The translations under genes and the position numbers were made by a program. Of a stretch of DNA of 44,954 nucleotides, positions 3 to 44,954 are shown piece by piece (position 1 is the stretch's first letter; each line of letters opens with the position of its first letter). This DNA comes from a phage, in sequence record OZ503098.1; one strand, given 5' to 3'. The notes under the pieces are model-generated. The model searched no databases, was not told the DNA's origin, and worked only from the letters and a program-made list of their open reading frames with translations.

Positions 3-1745
3 TTGCAGGCTATCGCAGACCGGACCATCGCGGCTAAAAACGAGGCGGAAGGATTCCGTAACGAGGCGGAAGGATTCAAGAACACCGCCAACTCTGCGAA
101 AGATGCTGCCGTAGCCGCTAAGACCGCCGCGGAGGCAGCACAAGGTAAAGCCGAGACAGCAAAAACGGCAGCAGAGTCGGCGAAGACCGCTGCGGAGACA
201 GCTAAATCGCAGGCCGTAACCGCTAAAGACCAGGCAAAAGGATTCCGCGACGAGGCTGAAGGCTTCGCCAACAGCGCTGACGCGTCAAAGAAAGTGCCGT
301 ATGCTGGCACCATTGTCACCGCGCCAACTGGCGTGGCGGATATGCTTAAGCGGTTGCGCGATTCTGTTAAAGGCGGTTTTTGGCGCGTTGATGATATTTC
401 GCAGTTCCCAGCGGGTGAGATGGCCCCTTTCATATACGGACCCGGCGTATGTGGAGGCGCAGGGGACACCTTCTTTGCCATCAACGTAGACTATCAGACC
501 TCTCGCGTCAAAGTTTACTCGGGAAACCATAATGCGATTAACGGGACGTTGGGCAGCGTTACCGCCCTTGAGCTTGCGAAGCTGGGTGCTAACGGGGACG
601 TGGCGATCGGGGACGGCGGGACAGGCGCATCGACCGACTGGGGAGCGCGCGCCAACCTTCAAGTCATGTGCGAAAGACAGAGTTCACTGACAACTGAGAA
701 CCTTAACGATCGGAAGGGTGATAAGTCTGGATTTTATTATACTAGCATGACTGCCAACGCAACGTCGGAGCGTAATTATCCCATTCGGGAAGCAGGTTGC
801 CTACTTGTTCAGCGCACTGGCGGTAACGGTCCTGAAAGCTGCATTCAGACGTATACAACATTCAGCAGCGGGCGTCGTTTTATGCGATGGCTTAACGTGG
901 GAACTGGCACTTGGTCGCAGTGGTACGAATTATATAACTCTGGGTCGTCGCCGACTTTTGCCGGGGTGGTCACTGGCTCTGCGGTAACAGCTAAGGGCGA
1001 CAATGCCGAAGCTAGTGTCCGTGTTATTGCCGATACAGGCGGCAAATATTGTGCTCGTATTTCCGTAACGAACAACACTGCAAATAGAAGCGCTAATTTG
1101 GATCTCTACGAGGATGGCTCACTAACCACCCCCCATATAACTTCTAATGGTGGTATAGACTCCAAAGGCGGGGTGCTTTTGCGCGACACACCGTACCCGG
1201 CAGTAGCCTTTCGCACAAACCGGTATACCTCACCAAACACACAACTTGGTGCATTTACTAAGTTTGAGGTTTCGGGGCAAGATGGGGAGGTGGCGTATGT
1301 ATCTCTGTCGCGGCATTACGGTACTGGTGCGGTAGACGGGGCAATATATGTTATGTTCCCCAACACAGGCGGCACGTTGGCTTTACAGGGGACTTCAGGT
1401 GTTAATTACAAGAAAAACATTGTTGATGCCGATGCTAGCGAGGCTTTTGATAGAATCATGGGCCTGCGATTAGTCAACTTTGTTTACAAAGATGATGAAC
1501 AGGAGCGCGTTCGCTTTGGTGTTATCGCCGAAGAAGCGGAAGTAATAGCGCCGCAGTACATCAAGCACCATAAGGTACCCTACGAGGATATTATTGACGA
1601 AGACGGCAACAAAATCGGCGAGAAAACACGGGATAGACCGTCCGTCGATGTAAACCCGATCGTCATGGATTTGATGGGGTGCGTTCAATACCTAAATAAG
1701 CAGGTGGAGGAATTGAAGGCGGAGATCGCGGCGCTGAAGAAGTAA
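3..1745 (+). CDS. Tail fibre protein, C-terminal part of a gene that starts at 44407 and crosses the window junction (about 721 aa in total); C-terminal intramolecular-chaperone-like domain plus short coiled coil
   Basis: Frame open from window start to stop at 1743-1745 and continuous with the ATG at 44407 because 44828-44954 duplicates 1-127. Ala/Lys-rich repeats (NEAEGFRNEAEGFKN, AKTAAESAKTAAETAK). C-terminal segment LVNFVYKDDEQERVRFGVIAEEAEVIAPQYI resembles the conserved core of tail-fibre/endosialidase auto-cleaving chaperone domains. Hairpin terminator follows. Confidence 0.7.
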   Translation: MQAIADRTIAAKNEAEGFRNEAEGFKNTANSAKDAAVAAKTAAEAAQGKAETAKTAAESAKTAAETAKSQAVTAKDQAKGFRDEAEGFANSADASKKVPYAGTIVTAPTGVADMLKRLRDSVKGGFWRVDDISQFPAGEMAPFIYGPGVCGGAGDTFFAINVDYQTSRVKVYSGNHNAINGTLGSVTALELAKLGANGDVAIGDGGTGASTDWGARANLQVMCERQSSLTTENLNDRKGDKSGFYYTSMTANATSERNYPIREAGCLLVQRTGGNGPESCIQTYTTFSSGRRFMRWLNVGTGTWSQWYELYNSGSSPTFAGVVTGSAVTAKGDNAEASVRVIADTGGKYCARISVTNNTANRSANLDLYEDGSLTTPHITSNGGIDSKGGVLLRDTPYPAVAFRTNRYTSPNTQLGAFTKFEVSGQDGEVAYVSLSRHYGTGAVDGAIYVMFPNTGGTLALQGTSGVNYKKNIVDADASEAFDRIMGLRLVNFVYKDDEQERVRFGVIAEEAEVIAPQYIKHHKVPYEDIIDEDGNKIGEKTRDRPSVDVNPIVMDLMGCVQYLNKQVEELKAEIAALKK

Positions 1746-19519: not shown

Positions 19520-19791
19520 TATATTGGTTTGGGTTGGGGTGTGCGACACTCTTTGCTATGGTGCTGGCGCTGTTGGTGTGGGTCTTCCTGATTTGGCCCG
19601 CTGTGGAAGCTGCCAGCATTACCCGCATGACGTTCCAGATATACAAGCGCCGTGGAATCACGGAGCACCCGACCAGGTTGCGCATGTGGTGGCTGTGGTA
19701 TCGCGATATGATAGGCGGGCGAACATTCGAAGCCGTCCGATCATCCGGGTGGGAGTGGAAAGGCGTCGGCAAGTGGTCCATTTTCGATTAA
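19504..19791 (+). CDS. Membrane protein (95 aa, two predicted TM segments)
   Basis: Hydrophobic stretch WFGLGCATLFAMVLALLVWVFLIW; overlaps the upstream small ORF. Confidence 0.45.
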   Translation: MLHDLIYWFGLGCATLFAMVLALLVWVFLIWPAVEAASITRMTFQIYKRRGITEHPTRLRMWWLWYRDMIGGRTFEAVRSSGWEWKGVGKWSIFD

Positions 19792-19808
19792 TTATGCAAG
19801 CGTGATAT

Positions 19809-19843
19809 AGTCCCAGTGAGCTAAAACTTACTGGGACTTTTTT
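19809..19843 (+). terminator. Nine-bp hairpin plus T6 immediately upstream of the holin start
   Basis: AGTCCCAGT-gagctaaaactt-ACTGGGACT followed by TTTTTT and then ATG 19844 with no intervening SD. Confidence 0.4.
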
Positions 19844-20134
19844 ATGGATAAGCTAAACGAGTGGTTATTCGCCCTTGCGTGTCTTGCTGGTGGCTTCGTC
19901 GGCGCACGCATTCATGGCGAGGCAACGAAAGGGCCGTTGAATTTCGTTTTATATGTCGTAGTTGGCTTCCTGTGTGCCATATTTGGTGCGCCAGCTATTG
20001 CGGAGTGGTCTGGTTTGTCTGGCGAGCGCACTGTCGCCGGATTGGGCTTCGTAACTGCGATCTTCTGGATGCCAATCGCTGACCGGATCCGGGAGACTAT
20101 TGCGTCGTTCCGACTTCCGGGGGGTGCAAAATGA
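19844..20134 (+). CDS. Putative holin (96 aa, multiple TM segments)
   Basis: Small hydrophobic protein with about three TM segments immediately upstream of the endolysin. Confidence 0.45.
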   Translation: MDKLNEWLFALACLAGGFVGARIHGEATKGPLNFVLYVVVGFLCAIFGAPAIAEWSGLSGERTVAGLGFVTAIFWMPIADRIRETIASFRLPGGAK

Positions 20135-20376
20135 TTATCTCCGTCCTGTTGTTTGTTATCATAGGGGCTTCGTCCCTGTTTAACGTGTATGCGCCGTCCG
20201 TCCGGGATGGCATTTTCGGTCGGGTGCTGTATCTGTTAACGGCAATGGTCTGTATTATCGGATTGTTGCAAACAGGAGACGTATCGGATACCACCTGGAC
20301 CGCGTTAATCTGGCTGTTTGCATTGCGCACCCTGCGTAATGCTGTTTTGAATGGGGTAAAACATGCGATTCAGTGA
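20131..20376 (+). CDS. Putative holin/antiholin partner (81 aa, multiple TM segments)
   Basis: Second small membrane protein; ATGA overlap with the upstream gene; GGGGGG RBS; overlaps the endolysin start. Confidence 0.4.
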   Translation: MIISVLLFVIIGASSLFNVYAPSVRDGIFGRVLYLLTAMVCIIGLLQTGDVSDTTWTALIWLFALRTLRNAVLNGVKHAIQ

Positions 20377-20854
20377 TAACGGTCTACGATTTACGGCAGC
20401 ATGGGAGGCTTTCAGCCCGGTGCCGTATTTCGCGACCAAGAAAGAGCAGGCCCGCGGCCTGTACACCTGGGGCTATGGGCACACCGGCACTAATCCGCCA
20501 CGAAGCATTACCCGTGCGGAAGCGCTGGAACTGCTCAAGCGCGATGTGGCGTATGCCGAGGACTGGGTGAACAAATACGCACATCCGAGCATTAACCAGG
20601 CGCAATTCGACGCGCTGGTGGACCTGGTAATCAACGCCGGTCCAGGTCCGATCGTACCGGATGACGTCGCGAATGATTTCGATGATGCGGTCCGCCTGGG
20701 CGACTGGGCGAAGGTCCGTGCTACTCTGCCGCAGTTCCGCAAGCAAGGTGGCGAAGTGCTTAAGGGTCTGGTGCGCCGTGCAATCGGCAGACAGGCGTTG
20801 TTTGATGGTAAGCAGTGGGACGTTGCCGAGAAAATCGGGCGTAACGCAGCATAA
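20363..20854 (+). CDS. Endolysin, T4 E / lambda R-type lysozyme (GH24)
   Basis: N-terminal FTAAWEAFSPVPY...GLYTWGYGHTG (catalytic Glu followed by the TxGYGH-type motif); 163 aa; follows the two holin-like genes. Confidence 0.75.
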   Translation: MRFSDNGLRFTAAWEAFSPVPYFATKKEQARGLYTWGYGHTGTNPPRSITRAEALELLKRDVAYAEDWVNKYAHPSINQAQFDALVDLVINAGPGPIVPDDVANDFDDAVRLGDWAKVRATLPQFRKQGGEVLKGLVRRAIGRQALFDGKQWDVAEKIGRNAA

Positions 20855-29263: not shown

Positions 29264-30364
29264 ATGTCTTTAACAGTGTTCCAGCGTAAACTCGTCACCG
29301 CGGTTACGCAAATGATCCCCGATAACCTGAACGTGTTCAACGCTGCCGCTAACGGTGCTGTTGTTCTCGGCACGGGTGAAGTGCTGAAGGATGTTGTAGA
29401 AAAAATGTCCGTAGGCTTGATCGCCAACCTCGTTACCGACCGTAACGCCTATGCCCCTGTCGGTACTCCGGCGACCGCAAAAGTGCTGGCGCGTATGCTG
29501 ACCAACTCCGTCAACCTGTCCGCGAAAGTGGGTCCGGTAGCAATCACTAAGGCTATGATGGCTAAAATCGAAACCAACGTTAACAGCGTTGCGGCTGAGA
29601 TTGCGGCACAGGCTACTCAAGCGATTATGCTGCATTACCTGAAGGCTGGCATCGGCGCAAGTAAAGCGGCGATCGAGAGCAACGCAGCGGCAAAATACAC
29701 CCAACCGGCGCGCGTTGACGGCGTTGGCGGTCGTACCTTCCCGACCCTGGCAGACTTCCCGCTGGCGGCTTCTAAGTTCGGCGATCAGGCGTCTTTGATT
29801 AAGTCCTGGTTTATGGACGGCGTCACCTGGGCAAACTTCATTGCGTACCAGGCACTCCCTTCCGCTGAACAGGTATTCGCAATTGGCGATCTCCAGGTAA
29901 TGGGTGATGGCCTGGGCCGTCGCTTCATTATCTCCGATGCCGCTGCCGATGCTATGGGCACGGGTAACATGCTGGGTCTGGTCCCTGGCGCGGTTGCAGT
30001 TACCACCAACGGTCTTGATATGCTGGCGCAGGAGAAAGGCGGTAACGAGAACATCGAACGTTGGTGGCAGGGCGAGTTCGACTTCAACGTGGCGGTTAAA
30101 GGCTATCGTCTGAAGGCGTCCGCACGTACTACGGTCGAAGGTGTTCGCTCGTTCAAACTGTCCGACATCACCACTTCCGCTAACTGGGAACTGGATCAGG
30201 GCCAGGTAGACAACGCACCGGCAACCGTTCAGGATGTTGGCGCTGTTGGTGACGGCGATACTAAAGGCCGTCGTAAGACCCCGGCCGCACAGGAAGTGCC
30301 GACCCGTCACATCAAGGAAACGGCAGGCGTACTGGTTACGCTTACCCCGACCAAAGCGTCCTGA
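29264..30364 (+). CDS. Major capsid protein
   Basis: 366-aa ORF after the scaffold gene, AAAGGA RBS, followed by a strong terminator; assignment by position, size and composition. Confidence 0.6.
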   Translation: MSLTVFQRKLVTAVTQMIPDNLNVFNAAANGAVVLGTGEVLKDVVEKMSVGLIANLVTDRNAYAPVGTPATAKVLARMLTNSVNLSAKVGPVAITKAMMAKIETNVNSVAAEIAAQATQAIMLHYLKAGIGASKAAIESNAAAKYTQPARVDGVGGRTFPTLADFPLAASKFGDQASLIKSWFMDGVTWANFIAYQALPSAEQVFAIGDLQVMGDGLGRRFIISDAAADAMGTGNMLGLVPGAVAVTTNGLDMLAQEKGGNENIERWWQGEFDFNVAVKGYRLKASARTTVEGVRSFKLSDITTSANWELDQGQVDNAPATVQDVGAVGDGDTKGRRKTPAAQEVPTRHIKETAGVLVTLTPTKAS

Positions 30365-30382
30365 TCTACGCACATCCCAAAT

Positions 30383-30408
30383 GGGCGGGCATAAGCCCGC
30401 CTTTTTTA
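30383..30408 (+). terminator. Rho-independent terminator after the major capsid gene
   Basis: GGGCGGGC-ataa-GCCCGCC followed by TTTTTT. Confidence 0.6.
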
Positions 30409-30422
30409 TAGGAGTGAATCTA

Positions 30423-30923
30423 ATGTATGGCGACCCGCAAACCTTTGTTGTTTATGCCGCGGCGCGAGGCGTTGAAATTACGCAGAGCGACGCAACTCGA
30501 CACCTTACCATTGTTAATGACTTCCTTAACGGCATCGACTGGATCGGCGAACAAGCGGACCCGACCGGAATTGACGCATGGCCCCGCGTCAACTACCCGT
30601 CAGACGGTAAGCCGGTGCAAAACACGCTTACTGAAGATTTGACAGTAGTTCCTGCGGGGCAGATTGTAGACTTCGCATCAATCCCTGTTGCCGTTGAGCA
30701 AGCAGTTTACCGGCTGGCAATGTTGGTGGCGGACGATGTTGATATTTCTCCGGTCAGCGATGGAAAGGAGACTATCCGTGAAACGGTAGGCCCGATCACG
30801 ATGGAGTATGACGCCGCGACGATTGGTAGCGGTGTGTCTTTCCCGTGGTGGGATGGCTTGCTGGGCTATTGGGTGGATGTAGACGGCAACGCAGCGGGTA
30901 ATTTTGACGTATTCAGGGGGTAA
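30423..30923 (+). CDS. Putative head-tail connector / head completion protein (166 aa)
   Basis: Internal ATG 30423 with AGGAG RBS (the long ORF start at 30234 would overlap the capsid gene); first gene after the capsid terminator. Confidence 0.45.
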   Translation: MYGDPQTFVVYAAARGVEITQSDATRHLTIVNDFLNGIDWIGEQADPTGIDAWPRVNYPSDGKPVQNTLTEDLTVVPAGQIVDFASIPVAVEQAVYRLAMLVADDVDISPVSDGKETIRETVGPITMEYDAATIGSGVSFPWWDGLLGYWVDVDGNAAGNFDVFRG

Positions 30924-39081: not shown

Positions 39082-39689
39082 CAACGTTTAAATTGTACGG
39101 CGTCTTAGGGCGTCGATTCGGTAAAGTGCATAAACTGGACTGCTTCACTCCGGGTGAGGGTATTACCGGCCTGTGCGTGAAGTTACCCGGCTTACAGGAC
39201 TTTCTAATGTCGGCCCACCTGGACAACATGATGTTCAAAGTGCGCAAGGGCAACCACACAATGACCGGCTACGACGAATTGGGCGAGTTCCACGGTAACC
39301 GCGTCGTCACCATCGCGCCGGTTATGACTGGCGCAAAAAGAGGATTGGGACAATTGCTGGCGGGTGTCGCGATTGTGGTGGCGTCGTTCTACGCGCCAGC
39401 GCTTGCTACTGCCGCTTTTGGGGCTTCGGCGGCAACCGCTGCCGCTATCGGGACGGCGACGTTTTCGTTCGGAATGTCTCTTGCGATGGGCGGTGCTATG
39501 CAATTATTATCACCGCAACCGAAAGGATTGCAGACAAGGCAGGACGTGGATAACAAGGCGTCGTATGCGTTCGGCGGCCCAGTAAACACTACCGCGCAAG
39601 GCACGGCTCTTGGTGTATTATGGGGCGAGCGTGAGATCGGCGGCGCTATTATTTCAGCCGGAATCGTAACCGAGGATTTGAACGAATGA
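39072..39689 (+). CDS. Tail assembly protein I-like
   Basis: Overlaps the K-like gene; soluble N-terminal domain followed by a Gly/Ala-rich hydrophobic stretch (AGVAIVVASFYAPALATAAFGASAATAAAIG); position before the J-like gene. Confidence 0.5.
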   Translation: MAMTTFKLYGVLGRRFGKVHKLDCFTPGEGITGLCVKLPGLQDFLMSAHLDNMMFKVRKGNHTMTGYDELGEFHGNRVVTIAPVMTGAKRGLGQLLAGVAIVVASFYAPALATAAFGASAATAAAIGTATFSFGMSLAMGGAMQLLSPQPKGLQTRQDVDNKASYAFGGPVNTTAQGTALGVLWGEREIGGAIISAGIVTEDLNE

Positions 39690-42600
39690 CGATTGTATAC
39701 GACGTCACGGGACATAAAGGCGGCGGTGGCAAACAGCACACCCCACAGGAGACGCCCGATAGCCTGCATTCGCTGGCTAAAATCCGCATCTTGCTTGCGC
39801 TGGGCGAAGGGGAGTTCGAAGGTATTCCCGACCCTAACGAATTACGGCAGCGCGTATATCTGGACGGAACACCGATCCAGAACGCAGACCTGTCCGAAAA
39901 CTTCCCCGGAGCGCGTGTGGAGTTCCGCCCCGGCACACAGCACCAGGATGTGATCCACGGATTTTCAGCGGTGGAAAGTGAGCAATCTGTCGGCGTAAAA
40001 CTGGAAAACGGTACGCCGTGGGTACGCCAGATTAACGATACCAGTCTGGACGCCGTTCGCATTCGCATCGGCATTCCGGCCCTGTACACTAACGAAGATA
40101 ATGGCGACCTGGTTGGCGGACGCATTGACTATAAGATCGTTGTGTATACGGATAACGCCGACCCGCGTGAGTTCAGATTCGCCGCCGTTGGTAAAACAAT
40201 GTCGCTATATGAGCGCGACCACCGCATCGAATTACCGCCGAACGTGAATACCGGCTGGCGAGTGGAGGTGCACCGCATAACGGCGGACTCCACATCGGCG
40301 AAAGTGGTTAATGATATCCGGGTGCAATCCATTACTGAGATTATCGACGCCCGCCTGCGATACCCGCTAACCGCGCTGTTGTTCGTGGAGTTCGACGCCA
40401 AAGCGTTCCAGAACATCCCGCGCGTGTCCATCAAGTGCAAAGGACGTAAAGTGCTGGTGCCGAACAACTATGACCCGATTAGGCATACCTATTCTGGAAA
40501 CTGGGATGGGACGTTTAAACGCGCATGGACGGATAACCCTGCGTGGCACTGGTATGATATTTGTATTACTGAGCGCTTCGGCCTCGGTCGTAGGATCAAG
40601 CCGCAGATGCTAAACCGCTATGCGCTTTACCAGATCGCGCAGCGCTGCGATCAACTGGTCAGTGACGGCAACGGTGGGCAGGAAATCAGATTTAAGAATG
40701 ATATGTACATCCAGTCGCAGACCGATGCCTGGACAGTGCTTAAGGATTTAGCCGCTATCTTTGCCGGAATGACCTGGTGGGGTAATCAGATGTTGAATAT
40801 CGTCAGTGACCAACCGGTCGCGGCAGTGTCACACACTATCACCAACGCCTCGGTTATTGATGGTCGATTCGACTACGCATCTGGCAGCCAGAAAACTCGG
40901 TATTCAACTTTCGCGGTAGCATACGGCAACCCGAAAAACCACTATGATGACGCTATCGCAACGGGCCAGCGCGTCGAACTGGTGCGACGCCATAAGATTA
41001 ACCGTCTTGATATTACGGCGATCGGTTGTACGCGTGAATCTGAGGCGCAACGCCGCGGGCACTGGGCGCTAATATCCAACCAGCTTGACCAGCAAGTTAG
41101 CTTTAAAGTTGGCATGGAAGGGTTATTCTTTATTCCAGGTAGCGTAGTAGCGATCGCGGACACAAACATTTCTGGGGGTTTTGAGACGCGCGGCGGTCGA
41201 CTGTTGTCAGACCCCGGAACGCGTACCGTGCTGCACACGGACTGCGAAATCACGTTCCGCCCGGGCGATAAGTTCCTTGTGCGTACCGATAGCGGAAATG
41301 TGGAGACTCGCGAGATCGCCAGCGTCAACGGCAACAAGGTCACGCTAAAAACCGCACTGGATGCCGACCCGATTCCAGACCAGCCGTTTTGCGTTGACGG
41401 CAACGATATCCAGTTGCAAAAATTCCGCATCACCGACCTGGAATATGACGACTCTACCAGCACTTTCTCGGTGCGCGGGATTGAATATAACGATAGCAAA
41501 TATGATGCCGTTGATAATGGCGCGCGCCTAGACCCGGGCATCTTTACGCAAGTGCCGGACGGTGTAATGAAGGGGCCGGAATCCGTGACTATAACTCCGT
41601 CGCAGATTTCATCGCAAGGCCAGCTAATAACCAACGTGGATATTGTTTTCCCGCCGGTGAAAGATGCCGTGGTGTATGAAATCCAGTGGAGGCGTACTAG
41701 CCTGCAGAATATGGAAATCCAGTGGGGTAACGACTGGGTGAATATCCCGCGCACGGCGTCGAATGGTGCGCACATCCCTAACGTGTTCTCCGGCAACTAC
41801 CAAGCGCGCGTCCGCGCAATCGGTATGGGTGAGATTTCATCTCCGTGGGTGTCTTCCGAAATCACGCCGGTGGAAGGTCGCCTCGGCGGGCTTAACGCAC
41901 CAATCATCACCAACGCGATTTCAGGTTTGCATCAAATTCTATGGAAGTGGAATCACAACAACGCTGCGACTGATATCTCATACACCGAGCTTGAAGTGCG
42001 CAAGACTGGCGAAACGGAATGGAAATTCTTAACAAACGTCCCATACCCTGGGGCAGAGTATGCGCAAACGTCGCTGGAGTTCGGCATATACCAGCAGTTG
42101 CGCGCCCGTGTAGCGGATAAAATAGGCAACCTGTCGGACTGGTCGGCCCCGTTCGAAGGCCAGGTGAGTGACAAAGTTGACGAGTACATGAAGGGGCTTG
42201 ATGACGAGTTCTTGACTTCCGAGGATGGTAAACACTTCCAGGAAGCTATTAACACGATCCCGCAGGGTATTTACGAGGCAATGCTCACCGACGCGCAGCA
42301 GTTGTTTAACGCCCGTGCCGAGTACAAAGGGATTTACGCAGAAATCAAGGTGGCTTATAACGTGGCGGCGGACGCCAGCAAGGCCGTAGCGCAACTGGAG
42401 ACGTTGATCGGCACGCGACTTGACGATGCAGAAGCGGCGATCCACACGTTGCAGACAGCGCAAAGCACGCACGAGCAAGCCTTCGCCCAGTATCAGCAAA
42501 CTGTTGCCGCTAAATTTGGGGATCAGGAAGCCGCCATCCAGCAGGTACAAACGGCAACGAGCACCAATGCTCAGGCGCTGGCGGATTATAAAGTCCACGT

Positions 42601-43138
42601 AGCGGCGCAGTTTGGTCAACAGTCTGCGGCTATCGAGCAGAAGATGACGTCTTCGTTTAACCATGCCGGTGGCAACGCCACATACAGCCTTAAGGCGGGC
42701 GTGACGTATAACGGGACTTACTATGATGCCGGTATGCAGCTTTCCGTCGTGGCGGAAGGCGGCGCGGTTAAATCCCGCATCGCCTTCAAGGCGGACCAGT
42801 TCTACATCATGCACCCGTCGAATGGGTCGCTTTCGTCCGCGTTTATCGTGGATGGCGGGCAGGTGTACATTGACACGGCCCGAATCAAGAACGCGTCGAT
42901 CAACTTCGCGCAGATCACGGACACGCTCCAATCGTACAACTGGATCCCAGAGAGCAGGGGCTGGCGTATCGCGAAAGATGGTTGGGCCGAGTTCCTCAGC
43001 GCTACGGTCCGCGGCAGGCTGTACGCTGATAGTGGTGATTTTGCTTTTAACGGAATAAACAACACCGTTCAAATTAACGGAAATGGGGTGACGGTTAACC
43101 TGCCCGGAGGCGGGAGGGTTGTATTAGGTACATTCTGA
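39686..43138 (+). CDS. Central tail fibre / host specificity protein J-like (tail tip attachment protein)
   Basis: 1150-aa ORF at the end of the tail tip module, translationally coupled to the I-like gene; size and position match lambda gpJ-type proteins. Confidence 0.8.
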   Translation: MTIVYDVTGHKGGGGKQHTPQETPDSLHSLAKIRILLALGEGEFEGIPDPNELRQRVYLDGTPIQNADLSENFPGARVEFRPGTQHQDVIHGFSAVESEQSVGVKLENGTPWVRQINDTSLDAVRIRIGIPALYTNEDNGDLVGGRIDYKIVVYTDNADPREFRFAAVGKTMSLYERDHRIELPPNVNTGWRVEVHRITADSTSAKVVNDIRVQSITEIIDARLRYPLTALLFVEFDAKAFQNIPRVSIKCKGRKVLVPNNYDPIRHTYSGNWDGTFKRAWTDNPAWHWYDICITERFGLGRRIKPQMLNRYALYQIAQRCDQLVSDGNGGQEIRFKNDMYIQSQTDAWTVLKDLAAIFAGMTWWGNQMLNIVSDQPVAAVSHTITNASVIDGRFDYASGSQKTRYSTFAVAYGNPKNHYDDAIATGQRVELVRRHKINRLDITAIGCTRESEAQRRGHWALISNQLDQQVSFKVGMEGLFFIPGSVVAIADTNISGGFETRGGRLLSDPGTRTVLHTDCEITFRPGDKFLVRTDSGNVETREIASVNGNKVTLKTALDADPIPDQPFCVDGNDIQLQKFRITDLEYDDSTSTFSVRGIEYNDSKYDAVDNGARLDPGIFTQVPDGVMKGPESVTITPSQISSQGQLITNVDIVFPPVKDAVVYEIQWRRTSLQNMEIQWGNDWVNIPRTASNGAHIPNVFSGNYQARVRAIGMGEISSPWVSSEITPVEGRLGGLNAPIITNAISGLHQILWKWNHNNAATDISYTELEVRKTGETEWKFLTNVPYPGAEYAQTSLEFGIYQQLRARVADKIGNLSDWSAPFEGQVSDKVDEYMKGLDDEFLTSEDGKHFQEAINTIPQGIYEAMLTDAQQLFNARAEYKGIYAEIKVAYNVAADASKAVAQLETLIGTRLDDAEAAIHTLQTAQSTHEQAFAQYQQTVAAKFGDQEAAIQQVQTATSTNAQALADYKVHVAAQFGQQSAAIEQKMTSSFNHAGGNATYSLKAGVTYNGTYYDAGMQLSVVAEGGAVKSRIAFKADQFYIMHPSNGSLSSAFIVDGGQVYIDTARIKNASINFAQITDTLQSYNWIPESRGWRIAKDGWAEFLSATVRGRLYADSGDFAFNGINNTVQINGNGVTVNLPGGGRVVLGTF

Positions 43139-43140
43139 AA

Positions 43141-43165
43141 TTAAAGCCCCGCAAGGGGCTTTAAT
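43141..43165. terminator. Bidirectional hairpin between the J-like gene (+) and the convergent minus-strand cassette
   Basis: AAAGCCCC-gcaa-GGGGCTTT palindrome between stop 43138 (+) and stop 43161 (-). Confidence 0.45.
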
Positions 43166-44096
43166 ACATGTTGGGGAGGTACGGCAGCGGAGTTGGTATT
43201 GTAACGTCGGGTCTGTTGCCGATTTCGTACCTTACAATTCGTGAGCCAGTTCCAGACCTTACATATCCGCCGCTCATAACCACGCCTTTGTTTCTTAGTT
43301 CCTTGTAGGCGGGTATAGCCCTTGTATTGAACCCACACCGTAGAATTGGGAAGTAGGAGTCACCAATATACTGATTGCTACCTGACAGACTTATAAACCC
43401 AGACACAATAAGGGGTCTGGTAACTGTTGAAAGTGTACAGGCGCCGTTGCGGTTAAATATGTTTAACCCTGGCCCCGGCACGGGCGCAACCATCTGGAAA
43501 ATAACCAAATCCATAGTAACACTTCCGGGTGTGTGCCCTGTATCATTTGTGTTTATGTTTGTGCATATCAACCGATTAACGCCGTCGTACTCAACTGAAA
43601 CACCAGAATTATCCCACCTGCCGAAAGGTATGCCGTATATTGGAAGGGTGTAACTATCATGGAATGAAATAGTTTGAGCAAATTTGCAGATAAGCAACCT
43701 GTCAGTTGTGGTTATCGAGGTGAAATCCGTGCTGTCGGCAACGTAAAGCCCCTGTCCTGTCGATGCTCTAAGAACCTCAACTACAGTACCCGAAAACTGC
43801 GTTACGCGGTCTGGATAACCGTTCTCATAGCCAATAGATATTGTTCCACTGGATGCTGTTGAAGAAAAGCCCTTTATATAATAAACCTCAACACCACGAT
43901 CTAGTTCGAATGAGTATGCGCCATTGTTCGGCAGAAGAAACCTCGAAGCCCCTTCATTACCTTGAATAGGGAATGACTTGCTAAACCCGCCACTTGAAAC
44001 ATTGAAGTTCCCCGCAAAATTCAAGGCACGCATACCCGCGGTGATTATCATCGGGTTGCGTCCGTCCTTAAGATCAATGTAGATACCTTGCGCCAT
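43161..44096 (-). CDS. Hypothetical protein (311 aa), second gene of a reverse-strand two-gene cassette
   Basis: ATG 44096 overlaps the stop of the upstream lipoprotein gene (TAATG); Gly/Ser/Thr-rich, beta-rich composition; no signal peptide recognised. Confidence 0.5.
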   Translation of the reverse strand: MAQGIYIDLKDGRNPMIITAGMRALNFAGNFNVSSGGFSKSFPIQGNEGASRFLLPNNGAYSFELDRGVEVYYIKGFSSTASSGTISIGYENGYPDRVTQFSGTVVEVLRASTGQGLYVADSTDFTSITTTDRLLICKFAQTISFHDSYTLPIYGIPFGRWDNSGVSVEYDGVNRLICTNINTNDTGHTPGSVTMDLVIFQMVAPVPGPGLNIFNRNGACTLSTVTRPLIVSGFISLSGSNQYIGDSYFPILRCGFNTRAIPAYKELRNKGVVMSGGYVRSGTGSRIVRYEIGNRPDVTIPTPLPYLPNMY

Positions 44097-44326
44097 TAGT
44101 TCCACTCCCGAGAGCCATAATCACGAACTGAGCCACCATGCCCTTTAATTCCGTCATAACGAATATCAACTTCACCCGCCGGAACAACTACACCGCCTTT
44201 CCATTTAGCCACACATACGCCGCTTGCTTGCGTCGCGCACCAACCATCCGTACGCGGGCCAGAAGAGCAACCAACAGCCATGACTACTAACGCGGCAATG
44301 ATTGCGGATTTGATTAAAGTTTTCAT
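44096..44326 (-). CDS. Small lipoprotein (76 aa): candidate receptor-masking / superinfection-exclusion factor
   Basis: ATG 44326 with AGGAG RBS; signal peptide with lipobox [23 protein letters not shown]; several Cys in the mature part; lies between tail tip and tail fibre genes on the opposite strand. Confidence 0.55.
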
Positions 44327-44356
44327 GGTATCATCTCCTGTATTGGGTTGAGTTTT

Positions 44357-44385
44357 AGTATTACACCGCTCAATCAAGAATGCAA
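44357..44385 (-). promoter_or_regulatory. Promoter for the lipoprotein cassette: TTGCAT-17-TGtAATACT on minus, with -35 inside an ATTGGTTGCA motif
   Basis: Plus-strand TGCAACCAAT at 44381-44390; minus-strand reading ATTGGTTGCATtcttgattgagcggTGtAATACT. Confidence 0.4.
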
Positions 44386-44406
44386 CCAATTTAAGAGGAT
44401 TTAGCT

Positions 44407-44954
44407 ATGGCAGCGGGTACGCTCTCTGTAACGAACAATAGCAAGGCAGTAGTAGGGGTCGGCACAACGTTTACCGCACTTAAAGCTGGCGACTTTCTGT
44501 CGCTGGTAGTGGGGCAAGTACCCTACACTGTTGCGATCGCGTCCGTCGAAAGCGACACCGCGCTTACGCTGGTGCTGCCGTTCGACGGCCCCACGGCAAC
44601 CGGCCTTGCCTGGGACGGCATCAAACGCGACACCATGTCACTGGCAACGATGGGCGTAACCGTCCAGGCACAGAAAGCATTGCGCTTGATGATTGCTGAC
44701 GAAAACAACTGGCGTGCAATCTTCGGTAACGAGGAACAGATCTCGGTCACGCTGCCGAGTGGGCAAGTTGTGCAGGGTATGTCATGGGGATACCTGTCCA
44801 GCCTGCTTAAAGACGTGGGCCCGGTGGAGTTGCAGGCTATCGCAGACCGGACCATCGCGGCTAAAAACGAGGCGGAAGGATTCCGTAACGAGGCGGAAGG
44901 ATTCAAGAACACCGCCAACTCTGCGAAAGATGCTGCCGTAGCCGCTAAGACCGC
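44407..44954 (+). CDS. Tail fibre protein, N-terminal part (continues as 3..1745 across the junction)
   Basis: ATG 44407 with AAGAGGA RBS; frame open to the window end and in phase with the 3..1745 ORF through the duplicated 127 bp. Confidence 0.65.
   Translation, partial: MAAGTLSVTNNSKAVVGVGTTFTALKAGDFLSLVVGQVPYTVAIASVESDTALTLVLPFDGPTATGLAWDGIKRDTMSLATMGVTVQAQKALRLMIADENNWRAIFGNEEQISVTLPSGQVVQGMSWGYLSSLLKDVGPVELQAIADRTIAAKNEAEGFRNEAEGFKNTANSAKDAAVAAKT
44828..44954. repeat. Exact 127-bp duplicate of window positions 1-127 (circular closure overlap or terminal redundancy)
   Basis: Base-for-base identity of 44828-44954 with 1-127. Confidence 0.9.

Follow-up and report, generated by a model that had tools for sequence, protein, structure and literature searches.

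What is a two-gene unit of the minus strand doing between two tail genes of the plus strand? The question is raised by record OZ503098.1, a window (that is, the whole stretch of DNA analysed) of 44,954 nucleotides (nt) that is a complete Dhillonvirus genome, in which a J-like gene and a tail-fibre gene, both on the plus strand, immediately flank a cassette of two minus-strand genes. The first of these encodes a lipoprotein precursor of 76 amino acids (aa; 44326..44096) and the second a 311-aa protein (44096..43161). A preliminary description, which had already placed the unit at these positions, read it as a superinfection exclusion module. The lipoprotein half of that reading stands, being borne out by homology to the structurally characterized Rtp45, whereas the 311-aa half gives way to a receptor-binding protein. 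As judged from sequence comparison, the cassette as a whole is very probably a known LptD-type host-recognition module, composed of a receptor-binding protein and a receptor-blocking lipoprotein.

The two cassette proteins

The 311-aa protein falls into a curated family over its full length, matching Pfam PF20051 (DUF6453) with an E value of 1.8e-122 over profile positions 1-290 of 291, and it belongs to phrog_1265. In the PDB, its residues 1-311 align with residues 1-321 of chain C, named “Tail fiber protein”, of entries 9RPT, 9RPW and 9RQI (E 1.2e-40). These entries, together with 9RPS, belong to the study of Dunbar et al. (PNAS 2025, PMC12685063), and show the receptor-binding protein of the Dhillonvirus Oekolampad (Bas18), RBP-Oekolampad, lodged deep in the extracellular side of the open LptDE translocon. 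RBP-Oekolampad, purified with a His tag, is soluble and attaches to LptDE from the outer side (PMC12685063). The 311-aa protein is 97.4% identical to its counterpart in HK578, 95.8% to that of Bas14, 77.5% to Rtp44 of phage Rtp and 32% to RBP-Oekolampad. It has neither a signal peptide nor a membrane-like segment, its highest 19-residue Kyte-Doolittle average being 1.31.

A single-sequence AlphaFold2 model of the protein was unusable (mean predicted local distance difference test 34, predicted template modelling score 0.28); the family assignment is settled because of the full-length sequence match to a solved chain (E 1e-40). The statement that this protein has no recognisable motif is thus superseded, and strong homology identifies it as a probable terminal receptor-binding protein and virion component. 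The preliminary description had itself regarded a structural place in the virion as incompatible with its reading, and that is where the homologues put the 311-aa protein. Public labels for the family comprise “hypothetical”, “DUF6453”, “membrane protein” and the PHROG category “moron, auxiliary metabolic gene and host takeover”. These labels are out of date now that the structure of a homologue shows a receptor-binding protein on LptD, and “membrane protein” and “moron” are unfounded for a protein that lacks a signal peptide and a hydrophobic segment.

The lipoprotein likewise belongs to a curated family, PF24052 (“Phage lipoprotein family”, E 1.1e-32), which is its sole Pfam match at E values up to 1, and to phrog_4281. 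As had been claimed for it, its N-terminus carries a lipoprotein signal: two lysines in the first seven residues (Lys2 and Lys6), an uncharged hydrophobic core and an AVGC lipobox with Cys20 satisfy a PROSITE-type lipoprotein rule and leave a mature protein of 57 aa. The residue at position +2 is a serine, which under the E. coli +2 rule leads to outer-membrane sorting. A PDB sequence search matches the protein to chain D of 9RPS (“Phage lipoprotein”, E 1.2e-39), which is Rtp45, and its identity amounts to 98.7% with the HK578 protein, 94.7% with that of Bas14 and 81.6% with Rtp45, 51 of the 57 mature residues being identical in the last case.

In 9RPS, Rtp45 of phage Rtp sits on the periplasmic side of LptDE, between LptE and LptM, with a Cys30-Cys38 disulfide, residues 30-35 forming a sheet with LptD, and a beta-hairpin rising through the LptD lumen (PMC12685063). 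This hairpin lifts extracellular loop 4 of LptD by up to 20 Å, a displacement that would block attachment of the receptor-binding protein (PMC12685063). Cys30, Cys38 and the strand residues 30-35 are all identical between the cassette lipoprotein and Rtp45, and conservation extends to the lipobox and to Ser +2. The lipoprotein of Oekolampad is 35% identical to Rtp45 (PMC12685063).

Gene layout and module boundaries

Both open reading frames are real genes, with Pfam matches (E 1e-32 and 2e-122) beyond chance. On the minus strand, the lipoprotein gene (44096..44326) runs from an ATG at 44326-44324 to a stop codon at 44098-44096 and is preceded, 7 nt upstream, by the Shine-Dalgarno sequence AGGAGA (44334..44339). 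The 311-aa gene (43161..44096) runs from an ATG at 44096-44094 to a stop codon at 43163-43161, and its product begins MAQGIYIDL. The stop codon of the first gene and the start codon of the second overlap as TAATG, and the receptor-binding gene follows the lipoprotein gene in one transcript; the ribosome-binding site and the translational coupling noted in the preliminary description are both confirmed. A GTG start at 44105, which would lengthen the product to 314 aa, was rejected for the 311-aa gene, since the homologues all start at the MAQG/MGAG methionine. That start agrees with the annotations of Rtp, HK578 and Bas14 and with the expressed Oekolampad protein, and is further supported by a GGAG 8 nt before the ATG and by the TAATG overlap itself.

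The unit ends at a hairpin, ATTAAAGCCCC-GCAA-GGGGCTTTAAT (43140..43165), which lies between the convergent J and 311-aa genes and overlaps the stop codon of the latter. Its 11-bp stem, closed by a GCAA loop, has a folding energy of -17.7 kcal/mol, with z-scores of -4.3 (minus strand) and -3.4 (plus strand); none of 200 shuffled sequences folds equally well. A simple promoter and terminator scan of 42800-44954 did not report the hairpin, and folding was used instead. Its position is conserved in HK578, Bas14, Rtp and mEp021, where the annotation places a terminator at the equivalent spot; moreover, the second stem pair (43141/43164) is T-A here and C-G in HK578, a compensatory change that supports selection on the stem. 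The hairpin, which the preliminary description had noted as bidirectional, is likely a bidirectional terminator.

At the other end, a weak sigma-70-like element occupies 44357..44385 on the minus strand, with TTGCAT at 44385-44380, a 17-nt spacer and a TGT-AATACT that ends at 44357. It matches 7 of 12 consensus positions, carries a TGn motif and is possibly, as far as sequence goes, the promoter of the cassette. The element is conserved among Dhillonviruses, which proves little because these phages are 84-92% identical there anyway. FhuA-type Dhillonviruses share it, and there it precedes an unrelated Cor-like lipoprotein gene.

This layout is that of a described locus type. For seven small siphoviruses that have the module in common, Bas14 among them, spontaneous mutants resistant to the phage mapped to lptD (Maffei et al. 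2021, PMC8594841), and the same work proposed that receptor-binding proteins are encoded just downstream of gpJ together with exclusion proteins, in loci that move horizontally. A 2026 preprint confirms that the receptor can be predicted from the locus downstream of gpJ, and it names the accessory protein of Rtp as the exclusion factor. The cassette has the features of an LptD-type locus, namely placement after gpJ, a homologue of Rtp44 and RBP-Oekolampad, an Rtp45-type lipoprotein and an LptD-type J C-terminus. Placement directly after J is also found in Rtp, HK578, Bas14 and mEp021.

The J-like gene itself (39686..43138, plus strand), identified from the open reading frame list and by homology, encodes a central tail-fibre or tail-tip protein of 1150 aa that is 96% identical to J of HK578 and 95.5% to J of Bas14, and its C-terminal region matches Pfam PF09327 (Phage_Tail_Tip). 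Comparison with phages of other receptor type or lineage delimits the module that includes the end of this gene. DNA similarity to the FhuA-type Dhillonviruses GeorgBuechner (Bas16) and BMA1 ends at 42941 and resumes at 44313, and similarity to the otherwise distant phage Rtp spans 43010-44316 (72% DNA identity). The exchanged unit thus covers approximately 42942-44312: it opens with the final ~40-65 codons of J, takes in the hairpin and the receptor-binding gene, and includes all but the first 4-5 codons of the lipoprotein gene.

At its left end, the last ~40-65 codons of J (42942..43138, plus strand) make up a C-terminal adaptor specific to the receptor type. The J protein is 83% identical to the LptD-type Rtp43 over the last ~42 residues and ~35% elsewhere, whereas it is 10% identical to the FhuA-type J of Bas16 over the last 50 residues and more than 90% elsewhere. 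The C-terminus of J therefore switches with the type of cassette, as expected for a docking adaptor and its ligand. The right-hand recombination junction falls inside the region coding for the signal peptide. Codons 1-5 (MKTLI) and the sequence upstream of them are common to this phage and the FhuA-type Dhillonviruses; the putative promoter region of the minus strand and the beginning of the signal peptide thus form a fixed “socket” for recombining exclusion genes.

Predicted mechanism and alternative readings

Homology, gene architecture, the lipoprotein signal, the module boundaries and the co-variation of the J C-terminus were established here; the LptD dependence of Bas14 and the structures of RBP-Oekolampad on LptDE and of Rtp45 on LptDEM come from homologues. 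Taken together, they suggest the following course of events. Both genes would be expressed as one minus-strand operon from one host-type promoter, ending at the hairpin shared with the convergent J gene. The 311-aa protein would be made in the cytoplasm without a signal peptide, be mounted non-covalently on the matching C-terminal adaptor of J and, in the virion, plug into the extracellular face of the lipopolysaccharide (LPS) translocon LptDE, leading to irreversible adsorption and DNA ejection. Meanwhile, the 76-aa precursor would be exported, lipidated at Cys20 and, given Ser +2, sorted to the inner leaflet of the outer membrane, where the 57-aa mature lipoprotein would bind periplasmic LptDE between LptE and LptM. 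Its beta-hairpin would be pushed up the LptD lumen and displace extracellular loop 4, leaving the receptor-binding protein of this phage and its relatives unable to bind. Superinfecting LptD-dependent phages would in this way be excluded, and the progeny would probably be spared loss on receptor in cell debris. The J adaptor, the receptor-binding gene and the lipoprotein gene would move between phage lineages as one unit.

Several points weigh against this assignment. The use of LptD by this phage is deduced from proteins 96-97% identical to its own, and we likewise infer from homologues that its own proteins have the same roles, as well as the timing of their expression and the exclusion phenotype in vivo. 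The solved receptor-binding homologue is 32% identical, and its named contact Gln299 falls in a gapped part of the alignment, so the details of LptD contact may differ between the 311-aa protein and RBP-Oekolampad. Docking of the 311-aa protein on the J C-terminus is suggested by co-variation and by the proposal in the literature rather than by a virion structure. As for the lipoprotein, no in vivo plating or exclusion assay for Rtp45 was found in the main text of PMC12685063, and the putative exclusion role of its family rests on structure and analogy. Finally, although the promoter-like sequence of the preliminary description is present at 44357-44385, its 7 of 12 consensus positions went unreported in the promoter scan of 42800-44954, in which the counts of sites equal those of shuffled sequences.

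Among the alternatives, the one that keeps most weight, though we hold it to be appreciably less probable than not, concerns when the lipoprotein pays off: its chief benefit could come late, by sparing released virions from LptD in debris or by perturbing LPS export, with the block to superinfection being secondary. Its co-expression in an operon with a late-acting structural protein speaks for such timing, exclusion factors are also known to keep phages from adsorbing to cell fragments after lysis (PMC12685063), and the lumen of LptD is where the hairpin of Rtp45 sits. Late timing is not required, however, as the same promoter region drives a lone Cor-like gene in the FhuA-type Dhillonviruses, and no effect on LPS export has been reported. 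Further extensions are unlikely, if conceivable: the lipoprotein might have a further part in host takeover or lysis, by slowing LPS export or destabilizing the outer membrane, an idea that arises because the hairpin wedges into the lumen of an essential translocon and the operon is shared with a receptor-binding protein; or its podovirus homologues, described below, might mark LptD as an unrecognised terminal receptor or serve to exclude LptD-dependent siphophages.

It is very improbable that both genes form an exclusion or anti-phage defence cassette in which the 311-aa protein acts inside the infected cell together with the lipoprotein, as the preliminary description had supposed in taking the 311-aa partner for a new exclusion or defence component. 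The genes are indeed co-transcribed, translationally coupled and opposite in strand to the structural genes, and PHROGs files the 311-aa family under morons and host takeover. Yet a full-length homologue has been solved, as the receptor-binding protein of a phage, on the extracellular face of LptD. The 311-aa protein, with no signal peptide or membrane segment, cannot get from the cell interior to the envelope, and the C-terminus of J co-varies with it. Furthermore, PADLOC models give no match for the 311-aa protein (and, for the 76-aa protein, only a Cas7 model at E 0.026), and NCBIfam yields nothing meaningful for either. A prophage defence moron would also be expected in E. coli genomes, but a DNA-level search of 5,426 complete ones returned 0 near matches to the cassette, and a distant-mode search of the same genomes returned 3 weak, partial matches (65-71%) to DUF6453. 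The cassette is thus no frequent prophage moron at the sensitivity of DNA-level searching. The three matches lie in NZ_CP172145.1, NZ_CP038336.1 and NZ_CP036177.1, where they are annotated as “DUF6453 family protein” and presumably belong to prophages.

Least credible of all is a place for the 311-aa protein in the host membrane, where it would have nothing to do with adsorption, because the “membrane protein” strings attached to Rtp44 and its relatives in GenBank and to phrog_1265, which favour it, are unverified automatic annotation, and against them stand a top hydropathy below the usual transmembrane threshold, the lack of a signal sequence and a homologue that is soluble when purified and binds LptDE from outside.

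Related systems, distribution and genome setting

Among LptD-type loci, the closest parallel in architecture is Rtp, in which rtp43 (J, plus strand), rtp44 (311 aa, minus strand) and rtp45 (76 aa, minus strand) follow one another with the same stop-start overlap and hairpin, and from whose Rtp44 and Rtp45 the cassette proteins differ by point substitutions only. The backbone is that of a Dhillonvirus here and not of the Rtpvirus type (Drexlerviridae Rtp), J is ~35% identical outside the adaptor, and the cassette is followed by a lateral tail fibre gene here and by recombination genes in Rtp. The same locus type is present in HK578, TheodorHerzl (Bas14) and AugustePiccard (Bas01). Oekolampad (Bas18) shares the genus, the locus, the protein family with a full-length alignment of the receptor-binding protein (E 1e-40) and the receptor LptD, which is predicted here, but 32% identity places its receptor-binding protein in a different sub-lineage of the family. 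In mEp021, J, the terminator, the 311-aa gene and the lipoprotein gene come in the same order; its 311-aa homologue is 61% identical and is annotated as “virion structural protein”, accompanied by a note, “flagellar hook-associated protein FlgL”, that is misleading.

The analogy drawn earlier with Cor and Llp holds as a functional likeness and fails as a sequence relationship. As with pb5 and Llp of T5 on FhuA, a tail-tip receptor-binding protein and a periplasm-facing, receptor-blocking lipoprotein are encoded side by side. The receptor here would be LptDE and not a TonB-dependent transporter, and the block would be a steric displacement of loop 4 through the lumen instead of long-range allostery. 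PDB sequence searches (E limit 1) returned no T5 chains, the pb5-FhuA structure being PDB 8A8C (cited in PMC12685063). To Cor of T1, phi80, N15 and HK022, the cassette lipoprotein bears a resemblance, and not membership, as a small outer-membrane lipoprotein beside tail-tip recognition genes. Homology to Cor-like lipoproteins was considered and rejected, since BLASTP aligns the signal peptide only (E 0.024); the comparison comprised the Cor-annotated protein of BMA1 and its Bas16 homologue, with T1 and phi80 Cor left out.

These two FhuA-type phages carry their 72-aa Cor-like lipoprotein gene in the identical minus-strand slot, with the same upstream region and MKTLI. However, J is followed in them by two plus-strand recognition genes (100 aa and 224 aa), leaving the lipoprotein alone on the minus strand, and the target of the Cor-like lipoprotein is FhuA, whereas that of the cassette lipoprotein is predicted to be LptD.

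Members of the 311-aa family were found in 333 phage records, compared with 281 for the lipoprotein family; wherever gene annotation was listed for an E. coli siphophage record, the two genes are neighbours. Adjacency is not universal: in at least Klebsiella phage RCIP0005 (OR532799.1) the DUF6453 homologue (19707-20660) and the lipoprotein homologue (30253-30486) lie ~10 kb apart, which means that the pair does not always form one unbroken cassette. Klebsiella Webervirus phages have the lipoprotein gene ~10 kb from the DUF6453 gene. Stand-alone homologues of the Rtp45 family, ~40% identical, are present in phiEco32-like podoviruses (Gordonclarkvirinae), among them ES17, Bas86, Bas88, Bas93 and phiEco32; in the last of these the homologue, phi32_106, sits in a run of small early-type genes beside tRNA-Arg. 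A tblastn search for DUF6453 had no phiEco32-like podovirus genome among the matches listed.

Nothing in the cassette is new, the locus type having been described in 2021 and the structures and mechanism in 2025, and its proteins are 95-99% identical to those of HK578 and Bas14 in GenBank. The stand-alone podovirus and the separated Klebsiella arrangements are unexplained in the literature consulted, and it is there, outside the window, that residual novelty lies.

The phage as a whole is a virulent, HK578-like Dhillonvirus. DNA identity in the cassette region is 96.4% with HK578, 93% with phiEco273 and 92% with TheodorHerzl (Bas14), and the first 25 kb of the window are 90-93% identical to many Dhillonviruses. 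Positions 1-127 repeat 44828-44954 exactly, an overlap of the ends such as assemblers leave, from which it follows that the window is a complete genome of ~44,827 bp in circular assembly. The lateral tail fibre gene on the far side of the cassette spans this assembly junction (44407..44954, then 128..1745, plus strand) and encodes ~721 aa. The N-terminus of the fibre is conserved with HK578 and the remainder diverges completely, with Ala/Glu/Lys-rich repeats (AEGFRNEAEGFKN..., TAKTAAESAKTAAETAK) and, at the C-terminus, a Peptidase_S74 intramolecular chaperone domain (Pfam E 1.4e-9). The fibre is a second, independently exchanged host-range module that adjoins the LptD module.

For the biology of this phage, the assignment predicts that LptD, an essential and conserved protein, serves as its terminal receptor. 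In this sense, the annotation identifies the gene that would determine host specificity and the gene that would protect the infected cell, and the mapped boundaries, from the J adaptor to codon 4/5 of the lipoprotein, would define the unit to swap in order to retarget such a phage.

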